Positions 864-38,832 of a DNA stretch of 39,983 nucleotides are shown here, piece by piece (positions within the stretch are counted from its first letter, which is position 1; each line of letters opens with the position of its first letter). The position numbers were made by a program, and so were the translations under genes. Location: positions 1-39,983 of the forward strand of contig JBGPNE010000001.1 in assembly GCA_041487335.1 (NCBI GenBank), given 5' to 3'. A model generated the notes under the pieces. It worked only from the letters and a program-made list of their open reading frames with translations. It did not search any database and was not told where the DNA came from. This DNA is from Pyrinomonadaceae bacterium. Its GTDB lineage: Bacteria; Acidobacteriota; Blastocatellia; Pyrinomonadales; Pyrinomonadaceae.

Positions 864-2864
864 TTAGGGCGAGCCTTGAACAGCTCGCTTCGCGGCCCTC
901 TCGACCGCTTCAAAATCAGCGCCGAGATCTCGGCCCTTTTTAGCAGCGTTCTTGTATGGGCTAGCGACCGCAAGTTGATAGTTGCCATTCGTTTTATCGA
1001 CGAAACCTACGTCGTCAATCGTGGCGGGGTAGTAATTCTTTCTGGGATATTTGGCGCTCTGGCCACCTACAATCGCATTTCTAATCAGTAGGTATGAAGG
1101 AAAGTACTGATCGAGCGTCATGATTCCGACGCTCGAACCATCACCGATGATTCCGTATTCATTGTGAGGAATAATATTGTAAGTGAATACAAAACCTTGA
1201 TTCGGTTCTCCATACGCAGTGATGATATTGCCGGTTTGAAAGGCGGTATTGTGATCCACCGTCACATCAACGGTTTCGGTGATTTGCAAAAACCTTCCAT
1301 TGGCTCCCCACTGGCTGCCCCCCACATCGTCGAAAATATTGCCTTTGATTTCCACTCTTTTTAGCTGTTCGCTCGCGTGAAGATTGTCACGTCCGAGTAA
1401 ATTGATGCCGGCGGCGGTGTGACGCACAAGATTGTTTGTAAAACTGACATCTTCGACTACAGACCACTTTGCATTGCCATCCTGATTGCGAACTGTAAAT
1501 AGAATGCCGAATCCGCTTTGAGCATCCACCCAGTTATTCTCAAAGACATTCCCATCAATTAGGACTCGCCGTGCATTTTTTAGCTCGAACAAATTCTTCA
1601 CGGACCATCGCTTGCCTGACTCAGGCGGCGCCTGGATCGGTTGTGCGCCGGCAATATCTCCAACATCGGTAAACGACGATCCATTTGAAGAATAGAAGAC
1701 CCATTTTCTCGTTGCAGCCGTTGGAGCGTCGCCTGTTCTGTAAATGCGGATTTCAGTTGCGTGGTCGATCGGGTCCCACGAAATGTTCGCGGAGGTTTGA
1801 TCTCCCGCCAGCGTTACGGCGATTTCGTCAGAGGCCGCAGAGTTAACGAGGCCGGAATACCCTGCGCGCCCCAGCGCGGCGATCCGATAGTTATATGTAG
1901 CCCCGGCGGCCAGGGCGCCCTGCGTAAATACTCCGCTAGCGGTTACTCGAATTGGTTTAGCTAAAATGCCTTCCATCCACGAAAGCGGTTTTGAGCAGTG
2001 ATTGTTTCTGAACTCGATGTCCGATGGCACGAGCTGGGGAATCGCCGGATCCGCACCGCCGAACAGGAGGTTCTCACCAGCAGCTTCGAGATAGTTGTTG
2101 ACGATTCTAAAAGGACCAGGGCCATTCCATCCGGCAATCGCCTGAGTGTCGAAGCCCAGGCCGTGACAATCGGATATATATGAATTGACAATGTCGGTTT
2201 TCGCGCTGTTTAGCGCAATGCCGCGAGAGACGTCGGCGGTTGCATGTCCATGAATGTAGCAACGATCAATAACCAGATCGTGGGGCAACAGGGAAGCATC
2301 CGCTTCCGTGCCCTCGCCGAACGTTACGATTCCATAGTTGAGCATCACGTCGGGGCCGATGGTGAACTCGATCCCTTCAAAACGATAATGGTGGGCGCAG
2401 GTTCGGGTCATCAGGGCAGGTTGAGAATTGGGACTTTCCAGTCTGGCCATCGCTGACACATCAGCTGGTGTGGCTCGTACGCCCTCTTGCAGCGCCTCGC
2501 CGACGGCTGAGGAGCGAATAGTAATCCAATCCGACAGGACGCCGGCTGTTGTCTTTTCGGGCAAGAAGAAATTTCCCCGCAGGACAACGCCAGCCTTCAA
2601 TGTGATTGTGTCACCAGGATTGGCAGCGATGAGAGACGCTTGAAACTCTTCGCTCGTCGCAACATCGGACGTCCGCAAGTACCTGCGGTGCGAGGCCGGG
2701 TGCGAGAATGGGTCTCCTATACGAGCAAGCACCGTAGAATAAGACAGCGGCTCGAGGACGAAAACAGCTAATACGACAGCCAGTGTGATCAATTTGCCGC
2801 GTTCGACATATCGTCTGCGAACGGTTCCCCCACGCAACGCCGATTTCGACATTGAAACACTCAT
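864..2864 (-). CDS. Secreted/anchored right-handed parallel beta-helix repeat protein, paralog 1 (carries a ~115-aa insertion)
   Basis: ORF 864..3059. Start trimmed to ATG 2864 (MSVSMSKSALRGG...), the first ATG after the upstream stop (TAG 2891..2893) and just before the single hydrophobic anchor LITLAVVLAVFVL. Beta-helix-type motifs: GDTITLKAGV, DRCYIHG, NSYISDCHGLGFDTQAIAGWNGPGPFRIVNNYLEAAGEN, PSDIEFRNNHCSKPLSW, WSVKNLFELKNARRVLIDGNVFENNW, NNLVRHTAAGIN, VDHNTA, PHNEYG. Clear paralog of 14873..16738 and 35551..38832. Confidence 0.85.
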   Translation of the reverse strand: MSVSMSKSALRGGTVRRRYVERGKLITLAVVLAVFVLEPLSYSTVLARIGDPFSHPASHRRYLRTSDVATSEEFQASLIAANPGDTITLKAGVVLRGNFFLPEKTTAGVLSDWITIRSSAVGEALQEGVRATPADVSAMARLESPNSQPALMTRTCAHHYRFEGIEFTIGPDVMLNYGIVTFGEGTEADASLLPHDLVIDRCYIHGHATADVSRGIALNSAKTDIVNSYISDCHGLGFDTQAIAGWNGPGPFRIVNNYLEAAGENLLFGGADPAIPQLVPSDIEFRNNHCSKPLSWMEGILAKPIRVTASGVFTQGALAAGATYNYRIAALGRAGYSGLVNSAASDEIAVTLAGDQTSANISWDPIDHATEIRIYRTGDAPTAATRKWVFYSSNGSSFTDVGDIAGAQPIQAPPESGKRWSVKNLFELKNARRVLIDGNVFENNWVDAQSGFGILFTVRNQDGNAKWSVVEDVSFTNNLVRHTAAGINLLGRDNLHASEQLKRVEIKGNIFDDVGGSQWGANGRFLQITETVDVTVDHNTAFQTGNIITAYGEPNQGFVFTYNIIPHNEYGIIGDGSSVGIMTLDQYFPSYLLIRNAIVGGQSAKYPRKNYYPATIDDVGFVDKTNGNYQLAVASPYKNAAKKGRDLGADFEAVERAAKRAVQGSP

Positions 2865-2890
2865 CGTGATAGTAGCGGCACTGTCGACGG

Positions 2891-9937: not shown

Positions 9938-11349
9938 GCTGCGCGCCCCCCAGCAATATCGACTTCGCTGACGACCGGACGCCACTTGTTCGCCTTTGTT
10001 CGCGGGATTTCATCAACCAGCAGCGTGCTGATTCTGAGGCCAGGTAGGTTCTGCCGGACTGTCTCGAGTATCTTTTCGCTGGCGTCCTCACTGAAACCGC
10101 TTTTTGGAGCGATTTTGATCTCGACCGAATAGTCGGGCCGCTGAAGAAACATATACTCACGAACCGGATAATCTTTCATCAGGTGAGGAATCTGCAGACC
10201 CGTTATCCATCGACCATCAGGCAGCCAGATCCGGTCAACGTCGCGTCCTACAACATCATTCAGGATGAAAGCCGGATGGCCCGGCTTGGTTCCGGGCAAG
10301 AAGCGCGCAACATCGCCGACGCGATAGCGAATCATCGGCATTGCATCGGCATGGAGCTTGGTGATGAGAACGCTGGCTTCAATCTCGGTCGTTTCAGGTT
10401 CGATCAGAATGTTTGCCCAATCGATCTCATAAGCAAAAACGCGGTGAGGTTGCATCTGAAAGGCCATGTAGCCAACATCGCGGCTGCCGTAGCGTTCGTG
10501 AACCTGGCGCCCAAACGCGGCTTGAATTGCTTGACGATGTTGCGGCAAGAGCTTCTCGGCGCCGGTGATCAACACCCTCGACGGATAAGTTGGGCGATGC
10601 CCGCGCTCAAGTATATGCTCGGCGAGGTGACCCAGGGCGCTCGCGTAGGCGATTATGCATTCGGGCTGCCACCGCCGAAAGTGGCGGTGATACTCTTCGA
10701 GCACACCGGGTGAGAGACGAAGACAATCAAAATAGCGCGAGTTGGTCTCAAATGCGTGAAACAGGTCGCGCAGGCTGTCGTGGGCCTTCGGGTCGAGATG
10801 GTGTCCCCAGAGCAAGGCGGTGCGCACACCGCCGGGTACTCCCATACGCCGCATGAAGTATTCCCCCGCGCTCTCCCTCCACCCTCTCTCTTCGGGCCCA
10901 AGCCAGACTTCCGTAGGCGCTCCAGTTGAACCTCCCGTCGAGTCTCTGAGGAGTTCGTTAGCCGGAATCCTCTGCGACAACAATGCAGGTCCGGCGCTTT
11001 GGATGTTCTCCCGCTCAAGAACTGGGAGCCTGGAAAACTCTTCGAATCCGAAATCTACGCTTGGATCAAATGCGATCTGGTCTAGCATCTCACGATAGTA
11101 GTCCGTCTCGGCGTATGCGCGGCGGACAACAAAGCGCAGGCGCTGAAGAATCCAATCGAGTTTTTGCTCAGCCCTCCATGCTTCCGCCTGGCTGCGAAGC
11201 CTCATCCCTTCGTAATAAGCTCGAATGACGGCGCGTCGCGAGGGTCGAACCAGTCGCTGAAATCTCGACAGTGGCAATAGAAATCTCCGAGATAGTAAAT
11301 CGTGAGTACGTATAGCAAGTCTTTGCATCTCCGCGCTCCCTGCTCGCAT
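9934..11349 (-). CDS. Phenylacetate-CoA ligase (PaaK)/CapK-like adenylate-forming enzyme
   Basis: ORF 9934..11547. Start trimmed to ATG 11349 (MRAGSAEMQ...), directly after the upstream TAA (11352..11354). ATG 11328 is an alternative and has GGGAG 7 nt upstream. Motifs: LRDSTGGSTGAPTEVW (P-loop-like SxGTTG), YGSRDVGYMAFQ, MIRYRVGDVARF. Confidence 0.8.
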   Translation of the reverse strand: MRAGSAEMQRLAIRTHDLLSRRFLLPLSRFQRLVRPSRRAVIRAYYEGMRLRSQAEAWRAEQKLDWILQRLRFVVRRAYAETDYYREMLDQIAFDPSVDFGFEEFSRLPVLERENIQSAGPALLSQRIPANELLRDSTGGSTGAPTEVWLGPEERGWRESAGEYFMRRMGVPGGVRTALLWGHHLDPKAHDSLRDLFHAFETNSRYFDCLRLSPGVLEEYHRHFRRWQPECIIAYASALGHLAEHILERGHRPTYPSRVLITGAEKLLPQHRQAIQAAFGRQVHERYGSRDVGYMAFQMQPHRVFAYEIDWANILIEPETTEIEASVLITKLHADAMPMIRYRVGDVARFLPGTKPGHPAFILNDVVGRDVDRIWLPDGRWITGLQIPHLMKDYPVREYMFLQRPDYSVEIKIAPKSGFSEDASEKILETVRQNLPGLRISTLLVDEIPRTKANKWRPVVSEVDIAGGRAA

Positions 11350-11351
11350 CC

Positions 11352-14300
11352 TTACTTCCGTTTCACGCCGATGAAGATCAGCGCCGGACTGAAGGACGAG
11401 CTTTCGGCTCCCTTCTCGCCCAGAAGCAGTCGAAAGGCGAAATTCAAGGTCACCTGAAATTTCATGCAGAGCCCAAGCAGCCACTGCGATAGCGAGTTGT
11501 CCCGGGCATTGAACAGTCCAAAATTGAATGTCCCATAGTGATTGCAAAAAAGAGGAGAAAGCCGCTGCCTGTCGAATAGCTCCTTGAATTCCTGCTTTCG
11601 CATTATGGTCAGGTTATGCATGGCTAGAACCTCTTTGTGAAACATTCGTGCCAACAGGTAGTTGAATCCGCGAAGATTCGGAATGCTGATAACAAGAACG
11701 CCGCCTTTGGCCAGAAGATTCAAGTGCTTTTCGACGATGCTTTTTGCATCGGTGAAGTGCTCAATGAAGCCGCGCGAAATGACCATGTCAAAATAACCCG
11801 CGTAGCGCTTGTGAAATTCATCCGAAAGGAAGTCGCCATGAATGACGTTGTTGGGGTTTATGTTATTTTCGGCGAATACCTGTCGGTTCAGATTTACGCC
11901 TTTGTCCGAGTACTCGATGCCGTAGGGAACGAACTCAAACGTTTCGCTCAGTCTGACGAGGAAATCTCCCGGGGCGCTTCCCACCTCCAACACCTTTGCC
12001 CCGGCTTTCTTTGGCAGATGATTTTTGTAAATAACGTTCCAGAGCAGGTGATCCTCGTAGCTGCCCATGTACTCGAGCACCCTCTTGCCCAGGAGCTTCT
12101 TGACGAAAGTCTTGAAACGTCTATTCAGAGGCTGAGTGCCGGGAGGAATGTTTCTGATCTGATTCTTTCTTTCCAGGAACGCTTCTTCACTGACGTGCGT
12201 CAAATCCCAATATTGCCTTTGCGTTAACTCTCCAACCTCAACCGCCAAACCCGGGTTTCGGGTCAGTATTGGCGGCAAAGGTGCGCTCGGACCCGCAGTC
12301 GCCGCTAACGCTTCGGCATTCCAAACGCCGTAGCCAACGTTCACGATTCCGCCGCCGGCAACAGGAACCGCCCGCCGACCCCACGACAGATCAGGAAGAC
12401 GAACAAGCCGGCGTTCAATGAACTCTCGTTCCTGAGGTGTCAGAACGCCGAGCAACAGTAGAGCTACAACGTAGAAAAAACAAAAAACCATTCCGCTAGC
12501 GATAAGCAGAATCAGCGGCGGAGCCTCCAGCCCATAAGAGCGCACAAACAGCGAAGCAATCCCCGCCGCGAAGGCAGCGATTGCAAGCTTGGTTATGTCT
12601 TTCAGCAATCCGATATCGCGACGCGTAGCGCCAAGAATTCGACACACTTTGGTGGCGATGACGCAGCGCTCGATGAGGTTGAAGATTACGACGACGGTTA
12701 TCGCTCCGATCAAACCGAAGCGGCGCGTACCGAACCAGAGGCCGACCGAAAGCGCCGCAATTACCGCAACCCTCACTCTCATCATGAAGAACCGATGCTC
12801 GGCATAGGCTCGTATCACCGGGTCGCAAGCGCTTGCTATCAGACCCAGGGGGATCATCGTCAGGTTGATCGCGAATATCGGCCAGCTGGATTCGTATTGA
12901 GCCGTGAACAGGACGGTAATGAACTCTCGACCCATAACCAGCAAAAAGAAGTAAATGGGAAGGTAGAATGCGGCGAGCTTCCGCAACATTCTTGCGATCA
13001 GCTCAACGATCTCTCGATCGCGACCGTGCTTCTGCAAGTAGCTCACGTGAGGAATCGTTACCGAGCCTGCCGATTCGCTGAGGATTCCGATGAGCGGGAG
13101 GTTGAAACAGCCGATTGCATAGACGGCAAATTCCGCGGCGCTGAATTGGTGGGACACGAAATAATTGTGCAGATCCGCCTGTACCTGAAACAGGACTGAT
13201 GCAAGTCCTATTGGAAGCGCGTAGCCTACCTGAGTACGCACCATTCTCCAGTCGATCGTTCGCCAGAAGCTCCCGAAACGCGAGCGCAGATAAAGCAAGA
13301 GAACGGCGGTCTGCAGGATGCCGTATACGATCGCGACATTGATGAGAGCCTCAACCGTGGCAAGAGAAATTGCCGCGGCGACCATCAGCCCAGTTTTAAC
13401 AAGCTGCGAGACGATGATGAAGAAGGTCGCCAGCCGGGATTCCTGATTGGCAAGGGTCACAACCTCGAGAAACGAGGAGACCACCCAAAACAGGATGATC
13501 ACTCCAATTCGCGGGGCGTATCCGGTTAGCTCATCGCTCTTGAAGATCGTTCCCAGCAAGGATGGGTTTAGAATCAAAGCAAGGCACGCCCCGCACCCCA
13601 TCAACAAATAAAACAGCAGAATGTTAAAGACGACCTGATCGCGTCGCTCGCGCTCGCGCGGCAGGAAGTAGAAAGCGCTCATTCCAAATCCGAGAGGGAG
13701 AATGTAAATCGCTGTGCCGACAACAAGGAAAACCTGTTTGTACAACCCGAACTCGTGTTGGCTCAATCGGCGCACCAGCAGCAGCGGAAGGATAAAGCTC
13801 AGTCCGAATGCAAGACACTTAGCGAAGAATAGCCATCCGGCGCGTACCGTAAACGATTCGCCTCTTTCAAAGTCTGAACTTGCGCGGTCGTTTATCAGTT
13901 GCGAGCGGAGGTTGTAGATATGCAACAGCGCGCGAGGCGAGTACCGAAGCCACCACAGCATTAACCGCAACTTCCAACTTCGATAAAACCTATTGGCATC
14001 CTTGATCTCGGCAGCCGCGGTCTCGAAATCACCGGCGGATAGCTTTTGTTTGCCGCGTTCAAGCTTCGCGGTGGCCTGGAGCCTTACTTCCAGGTCACAC
14101 AGTGCCTGCCGTTCCTGCTCTCCCAACCTGAAGTCGAGCCGGTTTTTTCCCAGCACAAGCAGGGTATGTTCGTGCAGATTTACATGGTCTGCGCTAAGGC
14201 TCGCCGAGTGGATTCTCTTACAGAGCAGAACCTTTCGCTGATAAGCCAGCCGGCCGCCATTCATGGCCAGGCGAAGCCACAAGTCGTAATCCTCGGAACA

Positions 14301-14873
14301 CCGCAGACCTTCATCAAATAAGCCTACATCCAGTATCGATTGACGGCGCACCAGAGTGCCCGAAAGCAGCACCGTGCATCGCGCCTCGAGCAATGCTTGA
14401 AGCGTCACATCGCCCCTGGAAGGGGTGGTGCGCATAAAAGTACGGCCCGCAAGCGGCGAGTCACCAACAAGCAACCCGTCCGAGTAAACAAGATCAACCG
14501 ATGGATTGCTCTCTAAGAACTTCACTTGCTCCGACAGGTATTCAGGCTCCCAGTAGTCGTCCGCGTCGAGGAACGCTACCAGGCGCCCTAGCGCCGCACG
14601 TACGGCTACGTTTCTGGCGGCGGAGCAACCACGATTGTCCTGGTTTATGTAACGGATCCTATCCCGATAAGCAGCAAGCGCGTGCTCGAGAGCAACAGTG
14701 TCGGGAGAGCCGTCGTTCACGACGATGATTTCATAGTCGGCGTAAGTCTGCGTTAGAACTGAATCAAGGGCCGCTCCAATGTATTCCGCCGCACGATACG
14801 CCGGCATCACTACGGTTACGGTTGGCGAGTCGTTGCGATCGAACGCTTTGTCTGAAAACTCCGTTGAATGCAT
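11352..14873 (-). CDS. Tripartite fusion: GT2 glycosyltransferase / multi-pass polysaccharide flippase (Wzx/MOP-like) / class I SAM-dependent methyltransferase
   Basis: Uninterrupted 1173-aa ORF with ATG at 14873 (TAATG overlap with the upstream stop). aa ~17-235 (about 14169..14825): VTVVMPAYRAAEYIGAALDSVLTQTYADYEIIVVNDGSPD, FLDADDYW, CSEDYDLWLRL. aa ~340-815 (about 12429..13856): about 12-14 hydrophobic helices. aa ~930-1110 (about 11544..12086): AKVLEVGSAPGDFLV, FDMVISRGFIEHF, GGVLVISIPN. Confidence 0.8.
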   Translation of the reverse strand: MHSTEFSDKAFDRNDSPTVTVVMPAYRAAEYIGAALDSVLTQTYADYEIIVVNDGSPDTVALEHALAAYRDRIRYINQDNRGCSAARNVAVRAALGRLVAFLDADDYWEPEYLSEQVKFLESNPSVDLVYSDGLLVGDSPLAGRTFMRTTPSRGDVTLQALLEARCTVLLSGTLVRRQSILDVGLFDEGLRCSEDYDLWLRLAMNGGRLAYQRKVLLCKRIHSASLSADHVNLHEHTLLVLGKNRLDFRLGEQERQALCDLEVRLQATAKLERGKQKLSAGDFETAAAEIKDANRFYRSWKLRLMLWWLRYSPRALLHIYNLRSQLINDRASSDFERGESFTVRAGWLFFAKCLAFGLSFILPLLLVRRLSQHEFGLYKQVFLVVGTAIYILPLGFGMSAFYFLPRERERRDQVVFNILLFYLLMGCGACLALILNPSLLGTIFKSDELTGYAPRIGVIILFWVVSSFLEVVTLANQESRLATFFIIVSQLVKTGLMVAAAISLATVEALINVAIVYGILQTAVLLLYLRSRFGSFWRTIDWRMVRTQVGYALPIGLASVLFQVQADLHNYFVSHQFSAAEFAVYAIGCFNLPLIGILSESAGSVTIPHVSYLQKHGRDREIVELIARMLRKLAAFYLPIYFFLLVMGREFITVLFTAQYESSWPIFAINLTMIPLGLIASACDPVIRAYAEHRFFMMRVRVAVIAALSVGLWFGTRRFGLIGAITVVVIFNLIERCVIATKVCRILGATRRDIGLLKDITKLAIAAFAAGIASLFVRSYGLEAPPLILLIASGMVFCFFYVVALLLLGVLTPQEREFIERRLVRLPDLSWGRRAVPVAGGGIVNVGYGVWNAEALAATAGPSAPLPPILTRNPGLAVEVGELTQRQYWDLTHVSEEAFLERKNQIRNIPPGTQPLNRRFKTFVKKLLGKRVLEYMGSYEDHLLWNVIYKNHLPKKAGAKVLEVGSAPGDFLVRLSETFEFVPYGIEYSDKGVNLNRQVFAENNINPNNVIHGDFLSDEFHKRYAGYFDMVISRGFIEHFTDAKSIVEKHLNLLAKGGVLVISIPNLRGFNYLLARMFHKEVLAMHNLTIMRKQEFKELFDRQRLSPLFCNHYGTFNFGLFNARDNSLSQWLLGLCMKFQVTLNFAFRLLLGEKGAESSSFSPALIFIGVKRK

Positions 14874-16738
14874 TAACGAGCCCTTGACCTCGTGAGATTC
14901 GCGGCCGTCGAATTGGCTGCCGCGCGAGTATCAACCTTTTCATTGAGGCGATTTGTTGCATTGACTTCGGTCTTCAACAACGTTCTGTCTGAAGACCGCG
15001 CCAGCTGAGCGGAATCGGACGCGGCCTTGAGCGTGTCAATATCAGATCCAATGTTCTTGCCGTCGGTTCCTGCGCCTTGATATGGGCTTGAAGTGCCAAG
15101 CGCATAATTGCCGCCCGTGCGATCCGCAAATCTGACTTCCTCGATCGTCGCCGGAAAGAAGTTGTCCCCCGGATATATTGAGCTCCGGCCGCCGGCGATT
15201 ACGTTCTTCTTGAAAACACGCCCGGGGAAATACCTGTCGAGCGTCGAATTGCCGACGCTCGAGCCGTCGCCCATGACTCCGTACTCGTTATGAGGAGCGA
15301 TGTTGTTTGTGAAAACGAATCCTTTACTGGCAGCCCCGTAGGCGGTGATGATATTCCCCGAGTGCAAAACGGTATTGTGATCAACCGTCACATCTTGAGT
15401 CTCGACAATCTGAAGGAATCGTCCGTTGCTTCCCCAGCGTTTGCCGCCAACATCCTCAAACAGATTGTTCCTTATCAAAACCCGTTTCACTTGCTCGCTG
15501 GGATAGTTGTCGTCTCGACCGAGGAAATTGATGCCCGCAGCAGTGTGTCGGACGATATTGTTACTGAATTTGACGTCTTCGACTACGGACCAGGGCGAAG
15601 TGCCTTCCTGGTTGCGGACCGTGAAAAGGATGGCAAAGCCACTCTGTCCGTCCACCCAGTTGTTCTCGAATAGATTTCCGTCGATGATAACGCGCCGGGC
15701 ATTTTTCAATTCGAACAGGTTTTTCACAGACCAGGGCTTCCCTGCGTAGGAAGAATGTTGTCGCATCCACGAGAGAGGCTTTGAACAATGATTCCGGCGA
15801 AATTCAATGTCGGAAGGGACCAGATTTTGGATTCTAGGATCGGCGCCTCCGAACATAACGTTCTCGCCCGCGCCTTCGAGATAGTTGTTGACAATCTTGA
15901 ACGGCCCCGGACCGTTCCATCCGCAGATCGCCTGAGAATCAGCCCCTGCTTCGTGAACTTCAGAGATGTGTGAATCAATTATTGCGGTTGAGGCGCTGTT
16001 GAGCGCAATCGCCCGCCGCAGATTAACATCGGCGTTACCGTGAATATAACAGCGGTCGATAATTAGATTGTTCGGGATTGTGTCGGGCGAGGTTTGTCCG
16101 CCATCGCCGAACAGGATGAGGCCATGATTCTGTGCCCAGCCTGGCGCGACTGTGAACTCGATGCCGATAAACCGATAGTGATGCGCCCCGGGCGCGGTCC
16201 TGATCACAGGATCGGCATTGGGCGTCAGGAGCTTTGGCATCACCGAGGCCGTACCCGGTCTCACGCGCGCGCCAGGAGCGGGTAGCTTTTCGTCGCCGAC
16301 AGACGAGCGAATCACTGTCCAGCCCGCGCCTTGTTTGTTGGGCAGCACGAAATTGCCGGTAACAATTGAGCCCGGTTCGATTGCAATCACGTCGCCGGAA
16401 CGCGCCGCATCAAGCGCCGCCTGAAATGCACGCGCCGCGGTATCGCCAATCCCGCTGACTGAAATGGTGCGGCCGATCGGGCGTACATAGTTTGTGTCGA
16501 GGAAGACGGCCGGCGGCGCAGGCTTTCTCATACCCGCGTTGGATTCAGCCAGTTGACTTACGGTAACTGGCCTTGAGGTTGCGTCGCTTGCGTCACGCGT
16601 GCAAGCCGCAATACAGAGCGCGGCACTTAACGAGATGAAAACCATCAGCACCGACACGTAAGCACGAGAATTAAGCGAGCGGATCCCAGGGCGCCCCGCT
16701 TTTTCGGTGGTTCTGAACCGGAAAATGTTCACCAGCAC
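14873..16738 (-). CDS. Secreted (possibly lipoprotein) right-handed parallel beta-helix repeat protein, paralog 2 (minimal form)
   Basis: 621 aa. The start codon at 16738 is GTG and overlaps the upstream gene end (TGA 16729..16731). A second GTG at 16732 and ATG at 16645 are alternatives. Signal-like LMVFISLSAALCIAAC. Shares the family motifs DRCYIHG, GWNGPGPFKIVNNYLEGAGEN, PSDIEFRRNHCSKPLSW, WSVKNLFELKNARRVIIDGNLFENNW and PHNEYG. Confidence 0.85.
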   Translation of the reverse strand: MLVNIFRFRTTEKAGRPGIRSLNSRAYVSVLMVFISLSAALCIAACTRDASDATSRPVTVSQLAESNAGMRKPAPPAVFLDTNYVRPIGRTISVSGIGDTAARAFQAALDAARSGDVIAIEPGSIVTGNFVLPNKQGAGWTVIRSSVGDEKLPAPGARVRPGTASVMPKLLTPNADPVIRTAPGAHHYRFIGIEFTVAPGWAQNHGLILFGDGGQTSPDTIPNNLIIDRCYIHGNADVNLRRAIALNSASTAIIDSHISEVHEAGADSQAICGWNGPGPFKIVNNYLEGAGENVMFGGADPRIQNLVPSDIEFRRNHCSKPLSWMRQHSSYAGKPWSVKNLFELKNARRVIIDGNLFENNWVDGQSGFAILFTVRNQEGTSPWSVVEDVKFSNNIVRHTAAGINFLGRDDNYPSEQVKRVLIRNNLFEDVGGKRWGSNGRFLQIVETQDVTVDHNTVLHSGNIITAYGAASKGFVFTNNIAPHNEYGVMGDGSSVGNSTLDRYFPGRVFKKNVIAGGRSSIYPGDNFFPATIEEVRFADRTGGNYALGTSSPYQGAGTDGKNIGSDIDTLKAASDSAQLARSSDRTLLKTEVNATNRLNEKVDTRAAANSTAANLTRSRAR

Positions 16739-18042
16739 ACCCCTTGATAGTTCTTCTCCCTATTCGAGACATCGAGAAGCCTGACCAGATCGATAATCAC
16801 GCGACCGTTGTTCAGCTTATGTGACAATTCGCGAAATTCATCCTGATGTTTCCCGATGATGAGCACCTCCGAGCAATTAATTACCTCGTTGAGATCCGAT
16901 TTCATCAGTGATGAAATGTGTGGGATCTCGTGATCGATGTACTGTTTATTCGCGCCGAATAACTGAGCTAATTCAACCTCGCGGTCATAAATGGTAAGCT
17001 TCAATCCTTTTCCGATCAGGGTCTCGATCAATGTCACCATCGGACTCTCGCGGAGATCATCCGTGCCAGCCTTAAAACTCATTCCGAGCACGCCGACGTT
17101 CTTTCGTCGCGTCTGAAGGACCATATCGACCGCACGCTCTACCTGCTGCCGGTTGCTGAGCATAATTGAGTTGAGGAGCGGCGTGTCGATATCAACCTCC
17201 CTGGCTTTGTAGGTAATCGCTCGCAAGTCCTTTGGGAGGCACGAGCCGCCGAACGCAAAACCCGGCTTCAGGTAATACGGCGACAGATTCAGCTTCGTGT
17301 CTTTGCAAAAGGTGTCCATAACCTTGTGGCTATCGACGCCAAGCGCTTTACAAATATTCCCGATCTCGTTCGCGAAGGTGATCTTTAGCGCGTGAAAGCA
17401 ATTCGACGCGTACTTCACCATCTCGGCTTCCTTAATGCCGAGTCTGATGATCGGCGCCTCGATTCCCGCGTAGAGGCGGCCTACCGCGCCGGCCGCGTCT
17501 TCGTCATCGGCGCCAATGATGGTAAACGGCGGGTTGTTGAAGTCATGAATCGAAGAGCCTTCGCGTAGGAATTCAGGATTGACTGCAACTCCGAAGTCGC
17601 GGCCCGCACGCTTGCCCGAGTAGACTTCGAGGGTAGGAATAAGAAACCGTTCGACCGTGCCCGGGAGCATAGTCGAGCGTGCCACGAGTACATGATAGTC
17701 GCGCTTTGCGGCTAGAGCTTCGCCGACCTGCTGGCAGGCTCGTTTGACGTGTGAGATATCCAGACTACCGTTGTGATTGCTCGGCGTGCCCACGCATATA
17801 AGCGACAGATCTGAGCCGTGAACAGCATCGCTTGCGTCGTCGGTCGCGCGAAGCCGGTTTGCTCTCACTGAAGTGCTGATCAACGTCTCAACGCCCGGCT
17901 CGATTATGGGGCTGCGCCCGTCGTTTATGATCTCTACCTTCGTTTTGTTGACGTCCACGCCTATGACTTCGTGACCTGCTTTCGCGAAGCAAGCGGCGGA
18001 AACGCAACCGACATAACCCAAACCGAAGATGCTCAGTCTCAT
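16729..18042 (-). CDS. GDP-mannose 6-dehydrogenase (AlgD-like; UDP-glucose/GDP-mannose dehydrogenase family)
   Basis: 437 aa with ATG at 18042. MRLSIFGLGYVGCVSAACFAKAGHEVIGVDV (Rossmann fold), NPEFLREG, catalytic GFAFGGSCLPKD, SFKAGTDDLRESP, and C-terminal ...GVCW. From memory this is collinear with and closest to P. aeruginosa AlgD (MRISIFGLGYVG..., ending GICW) rather than Ugd. Confidence 0.8.
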   Translation of the reverse strand: MRLSIFGLGYVGCVSAACFAKAGHEVIGVDVNKTKVEIINDGRSPIIEPGVETLISTSVRANRLRATDDASDAVHGSDLSLICVGTPSNHNGSLDISHVKRACQQVGEALAAKRDYHVLVARSTMLPGTVERFLIPTLEVYSGKRAGRDFGVAVNPEFLREGSSIHDFNNPPFTIIGADDEDAAGAVGRLYAGIEAPIIRLGIKEAEMVKYASNCFHALKITFANEIGNICKALGVDSHKVMDTFCKDTKLNLSPYYLKPGFAFGGSCLPKDLRAITYKAREVDIDTPLLNSIMLSNRQQVERAVDMVLQTRRKNVGVLGMSFKAGTDDLRESPMVTLIETLIGKGLKLTIYDREVELAQLFGANKQYIDHEIPHISSLMKSDLNEVINCSEVLIIGKHQDEFRELSHKLNNGRVIIDLVRLLDVSNREKNYQGVCW

Positions 18043-34734: not shown

Positions 34735-34765
34735 TGATCATTACCTCCTCGGGAACCGCCGCATT

Positions 34766-35095
34766 TCAGCATTGCGGGGTAGGCGGTTTTCTTGTCGCCG
34801 CCCCTAAGGACCTGGGGTTGAGTTTTCGCGAAAGAAAGAGCTGGATCGTAGTGCCTATCGAAAAGAGAGCTGATCCCAGGAGCAACAGCAACAGGGGCTC
34901 GAGATGAAAAGATGCGCCAGATGAATGGTTATCTTGCGAGGGCGCGAGACCGGGTCCACTTTGCGCACTCAATGTTGCTCGCTCGACGATATCGTTGGAC
35001 TTGTCGCTTCCCTGGATGCTCGCTTTTCGCAATTCAGTGAACGCAGCACACACGAACAGGAATGTGATGAGAATGAAAGCGCTTCTGAATTTCAT
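34766..35095 (-). CDS. Small secreted/bitopic protein with PEP-CTERM-like C-terminal segment (first gene of the operon)
   Basis: ORF 34766..35197. Start trimmed to ATG 35095 (MKFRSAFILITFLFVCAAFTELRKA, signal-peptide-like). Polar S/G/P/Q-rich middle, then HLEP-LLLLLLGSALFSIGTTIQLFL-SRK plus an 18-aa tail. Coding status rests on ORF position and signal/TM features only. Confidence 0.55.
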   Translation of the reverse strand: MKFRSAFILITFLFVCAAFTELRKASIQGSDKSNDIVERATLSAQSGPGLAPSQDNHSSGASFHLEPLLLLLLGSALFSIGTTIQLFLSRKLNPRSLGAATRKPPTPQC

Positions 35096-35119
35096 TTGGG
35101 TGAGACTTTCCTCATTCGT

Positions 35120-35133
35120 GCCAATCAATTGGC
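35120..35133. promoter_or_regulatory. Perfect 6-2-6 palindrome GCCAAT-CA-ATTGGC, candidate operator 25-38 nt upstream of the first operon ATG
   Basis: Read directly from the sequence: gccaatcaattggc at 35120..35133. The binding protein is unknown. Confidence 0.3.
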
Positions 35134-35351
35134 TGGTTAGGTTTTTTAGCGTCCGGTGACTCGGTTCAGATTCGCGGCAGAACCCCAACAGGGCCACTCC
35201 TCTGAGGATGGTGGAAACGCCGCCCTAGAGGTTGGCTTGCAACAGGAGTTCACCGTTGCCCGCTGGTAAGAGGCAGCCACAATTTTGCTCCCTCATGGTT
35301 CTACTACAATCGCAACCGCCTAACGCTTGCAAAAAAGCTGTGATGAAGCCT

Positions 35352-35385
35352 GGATCAAAACACTCTTCGGGAACGAAGGAGTGTT
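35352..35385 (-). terminator. Possible second terminator / attenuator hairpin in the operon leader
   Basis: Minus-strand RNA: AACACUCCUUCG-UUCC-CGAAGAGUGUU followed by UUGAUCC. The stem is 11 bp with one bulged C and the U run is only 4 nt. Confidence 0.35.
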
Positions 35386-35472
35386 AGCGCTGACCGCTAA
35401 GACACCTGATTAGCGGGTTCGGAGTGGTTACCCCCCAAGGCAGTGTGAAAGGGAGGGCAGTTGAAGTGGTTT

Positions 35473-35519: not shown

Positions 35520-35550
35520 GATCAGTCGAGAGGTTCATCCGGCTGGAGCT

Positions 35551-38500
35551 CTATTTCCGTTTTCTTTGAATCGCAAAGGCCTGGTCGCTAGTGTCTTCGA
35601 CATATGCCCCGCTGGCATCCCAGAGACGGACTCTAATTCGTGCAGAGGTCGTTGCAGTTCTTGGAACCCTCCAACTAAAGCTGGTGACAATACCTGGTGG
35701 CCCGGATGCCAGAACGGTCCAGGTCGAGCCGCCGTTGAGAGTCAAATGAATATCACGGCGAGTGGGAATGAAGCCGGTAGCCGACCATGCGATATTGCAT
35801 GTGGAGTCAAATAGAAGGATCTCGCCGCCGTTCGGGTTGAGCACTCTAACCGCCGGCGCTGGAGCAGCGTTCGTGATTGAGACTGAGGCGCTAGCAGTCG
35901 CTCCCAGATTGTCGGTCACGGTCACTCGAGCGGTGAACATGCCTGGCACCTGGTATAGATGAGATACGGCGGATAGCGTAGATGTCTCTCCATCGCCAAA
36001 GGCCCAGCGATATGCAGCAATCACGCCGTCCGGATCCAGCGCATTTGCGGTTAGGTCGACGGTCAATGGAGTTACTCCAGATGTTGTCGGGGCGGTAATA
36101 CTCACCCGCGGTGGTTGGTTAACGGCTAAGTAGGTGAAGCCACCTAAAAGACCGGCGCTCTGCCCGTCTGCGTTGGTCACGACGATGTCGACCGCTCCCT
36201 CGGTATGATTCGGAGTGACCGCAACAATTGACGTTGAGCCCTCCACATGAACTGAAGTGGCAGGGACGCCACCAATGGTCACCGTTGCTCCTGAAGCAAA
36301 TCCGCCGCCGCTGATTACAAGGTTGGTTCCCCCGCCAAACGGTCCAAAGGGGGGAGTAACCGCCGAGATATTGGTAACGGATAGTCCACTCGACTCCGGG
36401 AGAATAGTGGTGTCATTCTTCAACGCGCCGGGCGACGCGTTCAGAAATGCCTGTGGAGATAGTACTATTTGGTCAACAATCAATCCGTCTTCACGAGCTT
36501 GCACACGAACAGTCTGGGGTCCAGTGCTAGAGAAATAGACCAGGGGGCCCATCACCCCAACGCCCCAGCCGTTGTCCTGCCATCCCCATCCCTGTAGCCC
36601 GCATCCAGCGCAGTCCTCCAGATTCAGCGTAGTTGCATCGGTAGTGCCGATGCGAAACACTGGCGCTCCTGCTCTGTCCACGCTTCGCGAGAATTGTAAG
36701 AACACAGAGTCATTATATGGAGAGTCGTCCTGAGCTTTGGCGCGCATCCACAGCCGATACGCGCGACCCGCCACCGCATAAAATGACATCTCAAAATAAT
36801 CGGCAGGGTTGGCTAGAGGCATCGTCAACTTGGGCGCACCGGCATCGGGGTTCCACAAGCATTTCGTTCCGGCCGCCGTTAAGTCCGTCAACTGATTCCA
36901 TCCTCCCGATCGCACCGGCGCCGCCGATGCGTACATCACAATCTCGCTGCCCGGTGGCAATGGTTGATTGCTCACCGTGATCACCACTGTAGCGCTGGTT
37001 CTTGCGCCCAGGTTATCGGTCACTGTTACGCGAGCGGTAAATGTCCCCAGCGTCTGGTATACGTGGGACAACGAAGAGGCCGCAGATACCTGCCCATCTC
37101 CGAAGTCCCAGTTGTAAGAAACGATAGTGCCGTCTGGATCGGATGCGTTTGCGGTAAGGTCGACAACAAACGGCGCAGTACCCACCGTAGCAGATGATGA
37201 AATGTTCACTTGAGGCGGTTGATTGGACTGCGGCGGTGGTTGTAGATCTCCAATTGCAGCCTCGATGGCATCCTGATCCGCGCCGATATCGAAACCATCT
37301 GTTCCGGCATTCTTGTACGGACTGCTGGTTGTCAGTCGATAGTTATCACTCAATACGTCTACGAAGTGTACCTCATTGATAGAAGATGGAAAAAAGTTGC
37401 CGGACGGATACACACTGGCTGGGCCCGCGATGAGGACGTTTTTGCTGAAGTAGCAGCCTGGGAAGTAATAACTCAGTGAATCATTACCGATGCTGTGCCC
37501 CGAACCCATAATTCCGTAATCATTATGAGGTGTGATGTTGTTGGTAAAAACAAATCCGGTATCCGGCGTTCCATCGGCACTCACAATATTGGATGTCTGT
37601 ATTGCGGTGTTGTGATCGATGTGAACATCTGCCGTCCCATCTACCAGTTGGAATAGTCTTCCATTTCCGCCCCAAACTGTTCCGCCTATATCGTGGAACA
37701 GATTGTTCTTGATTTTGATGCGCTGTTCTTGCTGGCTCGGATGGAGGTTGTCGTGACCGAGAAACTGGACACCCGCAGCCGCGTGGCGGGCGATGTTGTT
37801 AGTAAACGTCACGTCCTGGACTACCGACCATGGAGCGGTTCCGTCCTGGTTGCGCGGCGTAAGAACAATAATGAACCCCGTTTGCCCATCTACCCAACAA
37901 TGCTCGAACACATTGCCATCAACGAGAACGCGTTGAGCATTCTTCAACTCGAAGAGGTTCTTGACCGACCAATGAATGCCCGCATAGCTCAAATCGGCTG
38001 GATTCCATGAGAGAGGTTTAGAGCAATGGTTACGTCGAAACTCAATATCGGATGGGACGAGATTAGGGACGTGAGGATCAGCGCCCCCGAACATTACGTT
38101 TTCGCCTGCCGCTTCAAGAAAGTTATTGACGATCTTGAACGGGCCAGGACCGTTCCATCCGGCTATGGCCTGGGTATCGAAGCCCAAGCCATGACAGCTG
38201 GATATGTTGGAATCGATCACCGCCGAGGAAGCGCTGTTTAGCGCAACGCCACGAGAAACGTCGCCCGTAGCATTGCCGTGGATGAAACATCGATCGATCA
38301 CGATGTCGTGTGGCACCAGCGCCAGGCTATTTTGACTGCTATCACCGAGACACACTATTCCGTAATTGGTTGCGACTCCGGCAGCGATTCCTATTTCAAG
38401 CCCGACAAGCCGGTAGTGGTGTGCGCCAGCTGCGGTCGCAAGCGCCGGCGCCGCGTTGGCCGTAACTATCTTGGGCATTGCCCCCGCTTGACTTGCAAAG

Positions 38501-38832
38501 ACGCGAGTACCTTCGGTCGAAATGCCTGCGAGGTTCGATGTGCGGATGATGTTCCAGTCGCCTCCGGTCTTGGTCGGCAGAATAAAGTTTCCGGTAAATA
38601 TGGCTCCAGCTTGAAGGACTATAGTGTCGCCGGACCGGGCGCTATCCAGGGCAGCTTGAAGGTTACCGCCCGCGGGCACGTTAAGGATCACACCGTTCGT
38701 TGCCGGAAATGAAGTTGATAGAAGGACTCTGGGTAACTCTGGTTCGCCTGGGGTCTGGGATAGTACGGTGTAAGAGCCTGCCCCAAAAAAGGTCGCGCCA
38801 ATCATTGCGTAGGCTATAAGGAGCTTATTCAT
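35551..38832 (-). CDS. Secreted multidomain right-handed beta-helix protein, paralog 3: beta-helix + PKD + CBM-like beta-sandwich + IPT/TIG + PKD + C-terminal Ig-like domain
   Basis: 1093 aa with ATG at 38832, preceded by AAGGTGAT. Signal peptide MNKLLIAYAMIGATFFGAGSYTVLSQ. aa ~30-525 carry the family motifs (DRCFIHG, GWNGPGPFKIVNNFLEAAGEN, PSDIEFRRNHCSKPLSW, WSVKNLFELKNAQRV). PKD1 is aa ~538-620 (YNWDFGDG). IPT/TIG is aa ~815-902. PKD2 is aa ~905-988 (YRWAFGDG). The Ig-like tail is aa ~993-1088. Confidence 0.9.
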   Translation of the reverse strand: MNKLLIAYAMIGATFFGAGSYTVLSQTPGEPELPRVLLSTSFPATNGVILNVPAGGNLQAALDSARSGDTIVLQAGAIFTGNFILPTKTGGDWNIIRTSNLAGISTEGTRVFASQAGAMPKIVTANAAPALATAAGAHHYRLVGLEIGIAAGVATNYGIVCLGDSSQNSLALVPHDIVIDRCFIHGNATGDVSRGVALNSASSAVIDSNISSCHGLGFDTQAIAGWNGPGPFKIVNNFLEAAGENVMFGGADPHVPNLVPSDIEFRRNHCSKPLSWNPADLSYAGIHWSVKNLFELKNAQRVLVDGNVFEHCWVDGQTGFIIVLTPRNQDGTAPWSVVQDVTFTNNIARHAAAGVQFLGHDNLHPSQQEQRIKIKNNLFHDIGGTVWGGNGRLFQLVDGTADVHIDHNTAIQTSNIVSADGTPDTGFVFTNNITPHNDYGIMGSGHSIGNDSLSYYFPGCYFSKNVLIAGPASVYPSGNFFPSSINEVHFVDVLSDNYRLTTSSPYKNAGTDGFDIGADQDAIEAAIGDLQPPPQSNQPPQVNISSSATVGTAPFVVDLTANASDPDGTIVSYNWDFGDGQVSAASSLSHVYQTLGTFTARVTVTDNLGARTSATVVITVSNQPLPPGSEIVMYASAAPVRSGGWNQLTDLTAAGTKCLWNPDAGAPKLTMPLANPADYFEMSFYAVAGRAYRLWMRAKAQDDSPYNDSVFLQFSRSVDRAGAPVFRIGTTDATTLNLEDCAGCGLQGWGWQDNGWGVGVMGPLVYFSSTGPQTVRVQAREDGLIVDQIVLSPQAFLNASPGALKNDTTILPESSGLSVTNISAVTPPFGPFGGGTNLVISGGGFASGATVTIGGVPATSVHVEGSTSIVAVTPNHTEGAVDIVVTNADGQSAGLLGGFTYLAVNQPPRVSITAPTTSGVTPLTVDLTANALDPDGVIAAYRWAFGDGETSTLSAVSHLYQVPGMFTARVTVTDNLGATASASVSITNAAPAPAVRVLNPNGGEILLFDSTCNIAWSATGFIPTRRDIHLTLNGGSTWTVLASGPPGIVTSFSWRVPRTATTSARIRVRLWDASGAYVEDTSDQAFAIQRKRK

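Follow-up and report, generated by a model that had tools for sequence, protein, structure and literature searches.

Three genes of an exopolysaccharide (EPS) locus from a Pyrinomonadaceae bacterium, an uncultured soil acidobacterium, found in a window of 39,983 nucleotides (contig JBGPNE010000001.1), code for paralogous proteins with a predicted beta-helix fold. On balance, these proteins are probably catalytically competent beta-helix CAZymes that act outside the cytoplasm on the uronic-acid EPS of the locus. They are best read as a sequence family that is new but of a familiar type (cf. WceF, VexL, RbmB and AlgG). Since a beta-helix glycanase is to be expected in an EPS locus, the finding adds to an established theme without overturning it. 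The original prediction had proposed extracytoplasmic steps that tailor or trim the polymer, and such a role appears to be the best reading; the fold, the lack of a family, the age of the copies and the EPS setting likewise held up, while the operon polarity, the GDP-mannuronate label and the use of some motifs as signatures did not.

Open reading frames were found on the minus strand at all three predicted places (Table 1), and a tblastn search gave exactly three copies in the window. Because all large genes of the window lie on the minus strand, para3 is the 5' gene, a separate upstream unit with a gap of 816 bp between it and the chain-length-determinant gene, and para2 is the last gene, which reverses the polarity first proposed. 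The first 10 nt of para1 lie within the upstream dehydrogenase gene, and a single base, the last of para1, also opens the downstream GT2-flippase-methyltransferase ORF. Para2 starts 26 nt past the end of the preceding gene, within an ORF that is open to position 3059 (864-3059, 731 aa) and in which translation probably begins at M66 (2864). Around para3 and para2, no Rfam match to a regulatory RNA was obtained, and consensus scans for promoters and terminators remained at or below shuffle expectation. The locus surrounding the paralogs is, as anticipated, an EPS locus, and its type is Wzx/Wzy. Models of the amidotransferase, chain-length determinant and O-ligase-like genes that accompany XrtA/PEP-CTERM systems match, all of them below cut-off (TIGR03108, 589 vs 817; TIGR03007, 142 vs 279; TIGR03097, 106 vs 188), and no exosortase model matched among the scanned ORFs of at least 150 aa.

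Table 1. Positions in the window of the three paralogs, their domains and the adjoining dehydrogenase gene.
Feature	Position	Strand	Description and basis
para1	14873..16738	-	621 aa, minimal paralog, lipoprotein-type beta-helix protein; ORF and translation
para1 signal helix ending in lipobox I-A-A-C (Cys46)	16601..16669	-	AF2 helix 24-50
para1 residues 265-365, most conserved stretch (coils 3-6)	15644..15946	-	Conservation, DSSP register
Nucleotide-sugar 6-dehydrogenase (UDP-glucose dehydrogenase-like)	16729..18042	-	Immediately upstream of para1
para2	864..2864	-	Membrane-anchored paralog, last gene of the array
para2-specific insertion of ~120 aa	1608..1973	-	Alignment gap; within the long T3 loop that directly precedes the WSVKNLFELK strand
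para3	35551..38832	-	1093 aa, secreted multidomain paralog, upstream-most gene
para3 beta-helix catalytic-type domain, residues ~58-519	37276..38661	-	Alignment; tblastn, 56% identity to para1
para3 C-terminal accessory modules	35554..37224	-	Pfam PKD_4 3e-34 (2 stretches), TIG 1e-12
para3 first PKD	36973-37224	-	
para3 Trp-rich module of ~190 aa	36385-36945	-	Pfam: only GH115_C at E=0.078
para3 IPT/TIG	36130-36369	-	
para3 second PKD	35872-36120	-	
para3 terminal domain of ~100 aa	35554-35850	-	Without family assignment

The three proteins have a common core of about 480 aa (para1 residues 90-565), over which their pairwise amino-acid identity ranges from 56% to 60%. The nucleotide sequences of the beta-helix core are 59-61% identical pairwise, slightly lower than the rough two-thirds first estimated, and third codon positions are about 35% identical over all aligned codons. 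From these values, the three copies are judged to be ancient paralogs, in agreement with the age first proposed. The conserved blocks quoted earlier are all present in the three-way alignment, namely DRC[YF]IHG, QAI[AC]GWNGPGPF[KR]IVNN[YF]LE[AG]AGEN, GGADP, LVPSDIEFR[RN]NHCSKPLSW, WSVKNLFELKNA[RQ]RV, DHNT and PHN[ED]YG.

Each paralog carries the predicted N-terminal signal or anchor: a lipobox in para1, a hydrophobic anchor following M66 in para2 and a classical signal peptide in para3. A lipobox-like motif occurs in 62 of the 114 closest homologues, against 15 of 150 family-wide representatives. The insertion specific to para2 probably folds as an Fn3/Ig-like beta-sandwich next to the putative groove, and its Pfam matches are sub-threshold (Pur_ac_phosph_N, E=0.008; fn3, E=0.22). 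In some other members of the family (e.g., P0172, P0231 and P0240), the matched stretches exceed the usual length by about 100 residues, compatible with a similar insertion. Among the accessory modules of para3, the Trp-rich one may bind carbohydrate. Across the family, the domain is fused to PKD, TIG, Big_7, DUF4082, CE2_N and Glucodextran_B domains, and such fusions are typical of secreted CAZymes.

With regard to the fold, the AF2 model of para1 is a right-handed parallel beta-helix (pLDDT 82.9, pTM 0.80, 374 residues at pLDDT of at least 90), to which DSSP assigns about 10 coils of three strands each and a cap helix at residues 98-111. An Asn ladder (N285, N316, N355, N394, N425, N455, N479 and N512) is at least 0.95 conserved, and Pfam Beta_helix matches para1 at 25.9 bits, exactly at its cut-off, as well as 15 of 25 relatives. 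The model and this borderline match bear out the predicted fold and place the proteins in the right-handed parallel beta-helix (pectin-lyase-like) superfamily. Attempts to assign them to a described family gave results at superfamily level only, whether by Pfam and NCBIfam scans to E=1, by searching PDB sequences with one query sequence and with a 25-sequence profile, or by Foldseek against PDB and BFVD. As the original prediction had it, the family is unassigned, with neither a specific model in Pfam or NCBIfam nor a sequence relative in PDB, and within the helix domain the Pfam scans to E=1 returned Beta_helix and Disaggr_assoc, and nothing else. Foldseek similarity is generic (TM 0.3-0.46, 9-15% identity), with the lowest E-values for the hydrolases GH136 and GH120. 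The PDB neighbours (best 50 of 78, E<=0.001) are, with few exceptions, beta-helix proteins that cleave glycans, comprising PL6, PL31 and PL9 lyases, RbmB, GH136, GH120, GH87, GH28, GH110 and phage tailspikes, and the viral neighbours in BFVD are tailspike or pectate-lyase-superfamily proteins. A prophage tailspike origin was rejected, because tblastn gave no match in 50,697 phage and 72,556 plasmid records.

Individual families of this superfamily were also considered. The AlgG/AlgE motif DPH[DE] is absent from all three paralogs in a regex search, in line with the earlier remark that their motifs differ from the AlgG signature. The GH28 motifs NTD, [GQ]DD, [GS]HG and RIK were not found on successive coils either, and there was no Glyco_hydro_28 match in Pfam; stray matches occur in para3, with [GQ]DD at 701 outside the helix domain and an isolated RIK at 371 inside it. 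No Pfam or NCBIfam match to PL1, PL3 or PL9 was obtained at E<=1, and the PL9 structure 1ru4 is a generic Foldseek neighbour only (TMq 0.32). As for PL6, no PL6-type Pfam model matched to E=1, the catalytic coils gave E>1 against PDB, and Foldseek TMq values were at most 0.43. The NosD/CASH model TIGR04247 reached 16.7 bits over 80 residues, against a cut-off of 300, with no full-length match to it or to PF05048. A literature search returned no relevant description of the family, or of the locus in Acidobacteria.

Conservation was evaluated over 152 diverse domains that are 37-60% identical to para1. Several of the motifs first quoted (VNN, SNN, DHN and TNN) belong to the structural Asn ladder at T2 turns and are not catalytic signatures. 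In the most conserved stretch, the candidate groove residues D267, Q269, E288, E292, N293, D310, K320, W324, W336, K339, N340, E343, K345, R349, E358, W361 and Q365 are all invariant among the three paralogs in the alignment, and K339, N340, E343, K345 and Q365 are at least 0.99 conserved over the 152 domains. As assigned from the DSSP strand order of the AF2 model rather than from measured distances, the invariants outside the ladder (D267, Q269, E292, K320, W324, W336, K339, N340, E343, K345, W361 and Q365) lie mainly on T3/PB1 of coils 2-6, the canonical active-site face of beta-helix enzymes. Since they cluster on one face, the conserved blocks do not appear to be only structural.

A polymer strand would then lie in a groove formed by the PB1 sheet and the T3 loops of coils 2-6, where W324, W336 and W361 may stack on sugar rings and K339, N340, E343, K345, R349, Q365 and Q269, together with D267, E292 and D310, may bring about cleavage. 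The favoured chemistry would be a beta-elimination at a uronate or uronamide residue, resembling that of RbmB, PL6 and PL9, in which K345 or K339 would be the Lys base, E343 would position it, and R349, Q365 or N340 would neutralise the charge. The preference for a lyase over acid/base hydrolysis, in which two of the conserved carboxylates would act, is slight, and the generic Foldseek similarity, with its lowest E-values for hydrolases, tempers it. The lyase of the locus could be another of its products, the heparinase II/III-like protein encoded at 22090-24645, a point against the present proposal.

Judging from the N-termini and domains, the three proteins may divide their labour by location. 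The lipoprotein para1, co-translated with biosynthetic enzymes, would act in the periplasm or at the membrane, trimming nascent chains or controlling their quality; para2 would act from the membrane, with its Ig-like insert adjoining the groove; and para3, secreted and held in the matrix through its PKD, TIG and CBM-like modules, would have mature polymer as its target, remodelling or releasing it. Such anchors and multiple Ig-like or PKD modules would also suit non-catalytic matrix or adhesin proteins, which bind EPS in a lectin-like manner, tether it to the cell or, in the case of para3, cross-link the matrix. Some proteins of the family carry two domains in tandem and gene arrays reach 5 copies, in keeping with such a role, and WceF agglutinates like a lectin, with slow turnover (PMC7949094). 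We nevertheless hold a purely binding function to be quite unlikely, as the near-invariant K339, N340, E343, K345 and Q365 exceed what binding usually needs, and nearly all structural neighbours listed (best 50 of 78) are enzymes. The fold, these enzyme-rich neighbours, the conservation on one face, the CAZyme-like fusions, the EPS context and the signal peptide or lipobox all argue for glycanases.

The dehydrogenase encoded next to para1 bears on the nature of the polymer. It had been labelled GDP-mannuronate-forming, but the only model that it passes is the generic nucleotide-sugar dehydrogenase model TIGR03026 (427.8 bits, above cut-off), its nearest equivalogs are the UDP-glucose 6-dehydrogenases AglM and TuaD, and the model scan gave no match to the GDP-mannose dehydrogenase model; the label and the alginate analogy are therefore baseless. 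An alginate-like pathway was rejected on these grounds and for want of alginate genes in the locus, which encodes an AsnB-type amidotransferase in addition to uronate-forming genes.

The tight coupling of para1, mid-operon among biosynthetic genes, to a uronic-acid-forming dehydrogenase could instead suggest a polymer-level C5-epimerase or another non-cleaving modifier analogous to AlgG/AlgE, abstracting the C5 proton of a glucuronate-type residue and reprotonating it from the other face with the chain left intact. AlgG is likewise a periplasmic beta-helix protein, epimerases and lyases have their first chemical step in common, and the very high conservation across phyla suits a biosynthetic enzyme better than a depolymerase. 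We regard this alternative as unlikely: the DPH[DE] motif is absent, AlgG/AlgE structures do not appear among the Foldseek matches listed (best 50 of 78), and an enzyme strictly coupled to assembly is hard to square with three copies, with the PKD, TIG and CBM-like modules of para3 and with orphan copies elsewhere. A narrower version, in which only the operon-embedded lipoprotein form is a polymer-level modifier, e.g., a novel type of GlcA C5-epimerase, and not a depolymerase, is also less likely. EPS-specific depolymerases normally diverge fast, and an identity of 50-60% across phyla is unusually high for them, which tells against the glycanase proposal.

Known systems offer several parallels to EPS-processing glycanases. 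WceF, AmsF and WcaM, from the Pantoea stewartan, Erwinia amylovoran and E. coli colanic acid clusters, follow the same gene-in-cluster logic, being beta-helix proteins with a signal sequence encoded in a Wzx/Wzy-dependent EPS cluster. WceF binds its own EPS as well as cutting it into repeat units (PMC7949094). It has no detectable sequence relationship with the present family, is absent from the PDB sequence matches and from the Foldseek matches listed (best 50 of 78), and is a tailspike-like trimeric hydrolase, whereas the present locus encodes three paralogs, one of them in lipoprotein form. VexL, from the Vi-antigen locus, is a periplasmic, non-catabolic beta-helix depolymerase acting on a polyuronic acid (PMC6003464), and its gene likewise lies inside a polysaccharide assembly locus; however, it is a recognisable PL1 that uses an Arg as base and is part of an ABC-transporter system, whereas our family is not recognisable as PL1 and belongs to a Wzx/Wzy system. 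AlgG and AlgE, the mannuronan C5-epimerases, are periplasmic or secreted beta-helix proteins of a uronic-acid EPS pathway too, but here neither DPH[DE] nor alginate machinery is present, and the dehydrogenase is not demonstrably a GDP-mannose dehydrogenase.

The PL6, PL31 and PL9 lyases have the fold in common with the family, and the PL6 structure 8bwk is among those of lowest rmsd in the Foldseek matches listed (5.3 A over 480 columns). PL6 enzymes use a catalytic set of Ca-binding Asn/Glu/Glu, a Lys base and an Arg acid. Sequence similarity to these lyases is confined to the N-cap, where the motif LQxALxxAxPGDxIxLxxGxY gives the only significant profile matches to PDB sequences, the alginate lyases 6kfn (5e-5) and PL6 7dmk (2e-4), and no lyase-family Pfam model matched to E=1. 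A possible mechanistic parallel in type and spacing of residues concerns the VPS lyase RbmB of Vibrio cholerae, a beta-helix protein encoded with matrix genes that cleaves an EPS with amide-modified uronic acid (PMC12993940). Its proposed mechanism involves the Lys base K227, a Glu, Arg R231 four residues on and Trp stacking (PMC12993940); the family has invariant K345, E343, R349 (i+4) and three Trp, and the uronate-forming and AsnB-type amidotransferase genes of the locus parallel the RbmB substrate. The Foldseek match to RbmB itself is weak (E 7.6e-5, TMq 0.31, 13% identity), with no match at the sequence level.

The family comprises 10,746 clusters at 50% identity, and the best 76 genome loci are all from MAGs of Acidobacteriota, Rokubacteria/Methylomirabilota, Chloroflexi and others. 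The pair of dehydrogenase and para1-type gene recurs in related loci of several phyla (26 beta-helix copies), including those of Rokubacteria and Thermoanaerobaculia; EPS synteny beyond this pair is also conserved, and other genomes have their para1-type and para3-type copies at the corresponding positions. Such a wide spread across unrelated soil phyla, the multiple copies and the many long secreted members in unrelated contexts outside EPS loci, themselves an observation against an EPS role, could also point to foraging enzymes for an abundant environmental glycan of plants, fungi or other bacteria, hitch-hiking in the EPS locus. This too seems improbable, given that no transporter, catabolic or PUL-like neighbours occur in the contexts examined and that para1-type genes overlap or abut biosynthetic genes across phyla, accompanied by homologous EPS genes. 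The gene at 2891-4093, a neighbour considered as a partner that might reveal function, proved to occur generally in related polysaccharide loci, with a homologue also in an ABC-transporter-type locus lacking a beta-helix gene (17 kb fetched); its product is uninformative on mechanism, since the fold match, to CE4 deacetylase or a GH57-like protein, is weak.

Among soil bacteria, Acidobacteriota and Rokubacteria rank with the most abundant and the least cultured, and their exopolysaccharides are thought to be relevant to soil aggregation and desiccation survival; to our knowledge, almost nothing is known of the enzymes behind them. In this family the putative active site shows an unusual degree of conservation, and the genes occupy a fixed position in an EPS operon that is itself conserved. 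We would tentatively suggest, as a bolder possibility, that it founds a new CAZy family of lyases or hydrolases with a Lys/Glu/Arg and tri-Trp groove, and that it marks a widely shared, uncharacterised pathway for a uronic-acid, possibly amidated, EPS in uncultured soil phyla (Acidobacteriota, Rokubacteria/Methylomirabilota, Chloroflexi and others), stationed as periplasmic lipoprotein, membrane-anchored and matrix-tethered forms. The characterisation of a single member would give thousands of genes an annotation, would probably establish a new CAZy family and would provide a specific tool to dissect or degrade the EPS of such loci. Family members are usually annotated as 'hypothetical protein'.

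The window holds exactly three copies of the beta-helix family, as judged by tblastn, namely para1 (the minimal one, used for residue numbering), para2 and para3. All large ORFs lie on the minus strand, and the three named in the original prediction are present, its start coordinate for para2 corresponding to M66, 26 nt past the stop of the preceding gene. Every motif block that it had quoted was reproduced by three-way alignment. Identities in the helix core (para1 residues 90–565) reach 56–60% between proteins and 59–61% between DNA sequences, and third codon positions are about 35% identical over all aligned codons, near saturation, in agreement with the proposal of old paralogs rather than recent duplicates. 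The para2 protein carries an insertion of about 120 residues between LSWM and WSVKNLFELK, with Fn3-like matches that are all sub-threshold. The C-terminal tail of para1 (residues ~576–621; window 14873–15010, minus strand) is of low complexity, rich in Ser, Thr, Ala and Arg, with pLDDT below 50; it is missing in nearly all homologues (at least 95% gaps at positions 588–597), and its end coincides exactly with the start of the next gene. A lipobox is mostly present in close para1 orthologues (62 out of 114) and rarely in family-wide representatives (15 out of 150).

Coordinates of the three paralogs and of neighbouring genes in the window
Feature	Position	Strand	Description
para1	14873-16738	-	ORF, 621 aa
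para2	864-3059	-	ORF, 731 aa; likely start M66 at 2864
para3	35551-38832	-	ORF, 1093 aa; C-terminal PKD, unassigned Trp-rich module, IPT/TIG, second PKD, unassigned terminal domain
Dehydrogenase beside para1	16729-18042	-	Passes generic NDP-sugar dehydrogenase model only
GT2-flippase-methyltransferase fusion	11352-14873	-	1173 aa; GT2, Wzx-type flippase (Polysacc_synt), class I methyltransferase
Heparinase II/III-like protein	22090-24645	-	851 aa; within biosynthetic operon, conserved in related loci
AsnB-type glutamine amidotransferase	6565-8514	-	Best against XrtA/PEP-CTERM amidotransferase model
AsnB-type glutamine amidotransferase	20129-22090	-	Best against XrtA/PEP-CTERM amidotransferase model
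Adenylate-forming protein	9934-11547	-	GGSTGAP motif; orthologue with weak CapK_C match
DUF362 protein	8534-9985	-	Pairs with adenylate-forming gene
400-aa protein	2891-4093	-	No Pfam match

With regard to family assignment, para1 scores 25.9 bits with Pfam Beta_helix, exactly the cut-off, the para2 core has no Pfam match, and NCBIfam yields a 16.7-bit NosD fragment and nothing else. A single-sequence query matched no PDB sequence, and a 25-sequence profile reached two alginate lyases, 6kfn (5e-5) and the PL6 enzyme 7dmk (2e-4), through the N-terminal cap motif only. The AlphaFold2 model of para1, built on the same alignment, is confident (mean pLDDT 82.9, pTM 0.80), and comprises a signal helix (24–50), a cap helix (98–111), a right-handed parallel beta-helix of about ten three-stranded coils (about 117–547) and a disordered tail. 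Foldseek retrieved 78 PDB matches at E<=0.001, the best 50 of which are nearly all beta-helix glycan-cleaving proteins (GH136 LnbX, GH120 XylC, PL6 alginate lyases and chondroitinase B, 6kfn, PL9 Pel9A, GH87, GH28, GH110, RbmB, and the HK620 and Det7 tailspikes). With TM of 0.3–0.46 and identities of 9–15%, the PDB matches are at superfamily level only, as are the phage tailspike or pectate-lyase-superfamily models found in BFVD. Chain cleavage is the favoured reaction type over a non-cleaving action, the rival being an epimerase or other modifier. The paralogs lack both the DPH[DE] motif of AlgG and the set of motifs typical of GH28. Membership in PL6, PL1/3/9, GH28, AlgG or NosD failed in every test run. 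The paralogs are most aptly classed as a new family by sequence, of a kind already known.

Conservation was examined over 152 diverse domains, 37–60% identical to para1, in which the residues conserved at >=95% split into two classes. The first is an asparagine ladder in the two-residue T2 turns between strands (N285, N316, N355, N394, N425, N455, N479 and N512), D228/R229 taking the equivalent position in the first coil. This class is structural and accounts for VNN, SNN, DHN(T) and TNN, which had been listed as motifs. We assigned strands from the model's DSSP string, according to how they follow one another about the T2 turn. Of the 25 polar or aromatic residues outside the ladder that are conserved at >=0.88, this assignment places 14 in T3 loops or PB1 strands within coils 2–6 (R242, D267, Q269, E292, N293, K320, W324, W336, K339, N340, E343, K345, W361 and Q365), the others being mostly in flanking PB3, T1 and PB2 positions (H233, E288, D310, R349 and E358). 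In beta-helix lyases and hydrolases (PL1, PL6, PL9, GH28), substrate is canonically bound in the groove that PB1 forms with the T3 and T1 loops. From the DSSP register, we infer that the non-ladder residues would cluster in three dimensions. Since E343 and K345 alternate with the hydrophobic F342 and L344, their side chains should face outward from PB1. The conserved blocks, which the original prediction had allowed might be only structural, thus include more than a scaffold, with non-ladder residues mainly on T3/PB1. As all three paralogs share the same residue at each of these positions, none looks, from its sequence, like a dead copy. Both the para2 insertion and the longest para1 loop (320–341) lie in the T3 loop entering the E343/K345 strand, and could shape specificity.

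A beta-helix glycanase inside an exopolysaccharide (EPS) locus would be expected by a specialist, and the novelty is in this respect moderate; what is new is a very large, highly conserved, unnamed family, so far confined to uncultured soil lineages. A word-indexed search gave at least 7,909 matches, the best being "hypothetical protein" entries of Blastocatellia and other Acidobacteriota MAGs, from which a Blastocatellia origin of the window is most likely. When 1.84 billion representatives were searched exhaustively with a profile, 10,746 clusters (50% identity) passed E<=1e-3, and 5,359 passed E<=1e-30. Family architectures span 530 to 1,450 aa, and some members, about 1050 aa long, consist of two entire beta-helix domains fused in tandem (P0002–P0006, P0121, P0134, P0160). 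Relatives are encoded at no fewer than 590 loci of the species-representative genome set, and none was found in phage or plasmid records. The best 76 distinct loci are without exception from MAGs, belonging to Blastocatellia, other Acidobacteriota, Thermoanaerobaculia, Rokubacteria/Methylomirabilota, Chloroflexi, Polyangiaceae and one CPR Uhrbacteria bin; their 49–77% identity to para1, held across phyla, is striking. One Rokubacteria contig (L047 1–11500) carries five domain copies, four within three neighbouring genes, one of which encodes a protein of 1538 aa that joins two domains to Big_7 and Glucodextran_B modules.

The window is a single long co-directional polysaccharide locus. Minus-strand orientation makes para3 the upstream-most gene and para2 the last of the array, the reverse of the polarity first proposed. 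para3 is isolated: a gap of 816 bp follows it, and no sizeable ORF lies in the more than 1 kb before it. A convincing gene is absent from 34735–35550 (the gap to the chain-length determinant) and 38833–39983 (more than 1.1 kb), neither has an Rfam match, and promoter and terminator scans around them gave no signal above background. In order of transcription, para3 is followed by a chain-length determinant, a ParA/BY-kinase-like ATPase, the initiating sugar transferase (Bac_transf), Poly_export/SLBB, a formyltransferase-like gene, a polysaccharide deacetylase, a Wzy_C-type polymerase or ligase, a GT2, the heparinase II/III-like protein, an AsnB-type amidotransferase, a methyltransferase, a GT4, the nucleotide-sugar dehydrogenase, para1, the GT2-flippase-methyltransferase fusion, the adenylate-forming CapK-like protein, DUF362, the second AsnB-type amidotransferase, two GT4, the 400-aa protein and para2. 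Several XrtA/PEP-CTERM-associated models were matched, every one below its cut-off (450 and 589 bits for the AsnB-type enzymes at 6565–8514 and 20129–22090, respectively, against 817 for the amidotransferase model), and no window ORF scanned matched an exosortase model. The dehydrogenase, whose 3' end runs 10 nt into para1, has the UDP-glucose 6-dehydrogenases AglM and TuaD as closest equivalogs and matched no GDP-mannose dehydrogenase model; the label "GDP-mannuronate-forming" and the alginate analogy attached to it are therefore unsupported. In related genomes, the functions of the fusion protein are spread over two or three genes (L004, L005), or a GT2-flippase alone is present (L003). The listed start of the adenylate-forming ORF is probably too far upstream, its overlap with the preceding gene being about 200 nt; the adenylate-forming and DUF362 pair is conserved, and every related locus examined has it after the flippase.

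Four orthologue look-ups share the order dehydrogenase, beta-helix, (GT2) flippase, CapK-like and DUF362. When the window's proteins were compared by tblastn with 81 fetched loci, EPS-gene homologues turned up in the majority of those 15 kb or longer, and single loci had up to five copies of the family. In this comparison, 26 para1-type copies adjoin a dehydrogenase, including in Rokubacteria and Thermoanaerobaculia, and para3-type copies, with a long C-terminus, adjoin the chain-length determinant or the formyltransferase/deacetylase pair. Both types thus keep their place in other genomes, as positional orthologues, and this suggests that they subfunctionalised long ago. Only two loci showed the para2-type position, because the insertion breaks up its matches. 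Elsewhere, long members with several domains lie among unrelated genes (kinases, integrase, regulators; one adjoins a flippase and an acyltransferase), a setting relevant to the rival of a foraging enzyme unrelated to the locus; no catabolic or transporter genes lie beside them in the neighbourhoods examined.

The best-supported reading is that the paralogs act as extracytoplasmic glycan-processing enzymes on the locus's own polymer. The original prediction was partly right: a tailoring or trimming role is the likeliest, the polarity was reversed, and the GDP-mannuronate label lacks support. This polymer would contain uronic acid, given the dehydrogenase, possibly amidated in view of the adenylating enzyme and the two AsnB-type amidotransferases, which may target uronic acids. 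The three localisations suggest a division of labour, in which para1 and para2 would trim during export, in the periplasm or membrane, and para3 would serve matrix remodelling or polymer release. The placement of these genes inside a polysaccharide locus mirrors AlgG and AlgL of alginate synthesis, VexL, a non-catabolic periplasmic PL1 lyase of the Vi locus (PMC6003464), the beta-helix glycosidases WceF/AmsF/WcaM within Wzy-dependent clusters (PMC7949094), and the VPS lyase RbmB, for which K227 is proposed as the base, with assistance from E253 and stacking by W138 (PMC12993940). Within cleavage, beta-elimination is slightly favoured over hydrolysis because the pairing of para1-type copies with a uronate-forming dehydrogenase is conserved, the K345...R349 spacing (i+4) recalls K227...R231 of RbmB (PMC12993940), the cap resembles that of alginate lyases, and a Lys/Glu/Arg/Gln/Asn and three-Trp constellation is invariant; a lectin-like matrix protein is the rival to be weighed against this last feature. 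Hydrolysis is nearly as likely, with six conserved carboxylates and the lowest Foldseek E-values, among the best 50 of 78, held by GH136 and GH120. Giving the lyase role to the beta-helix proteins is complicated by the heparinase II/III-like protein, which is another candidate for lyase or uronyl epimerase action on this polymer.

The 400-aa protein preceding para2 represents a second large unassigned family, with at least 4,719 homologues at about 60% identity in Acidobacteriota, and one record labelled Gemmataceae. Its AF2 model (pLDDT 76.5) has an alpha/beta barrel-like fold, with weak Foldseek matches only, to CE4 chitin deacetylases and GH57, and invariant His/Asp/Glu clusters comprise N50, H51 and E53; H127, H129 and H130; H174; and D205. 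The family recurs in related polysaccharide loci, including those of the ABC-transporter (Wzm/Wzt) type.
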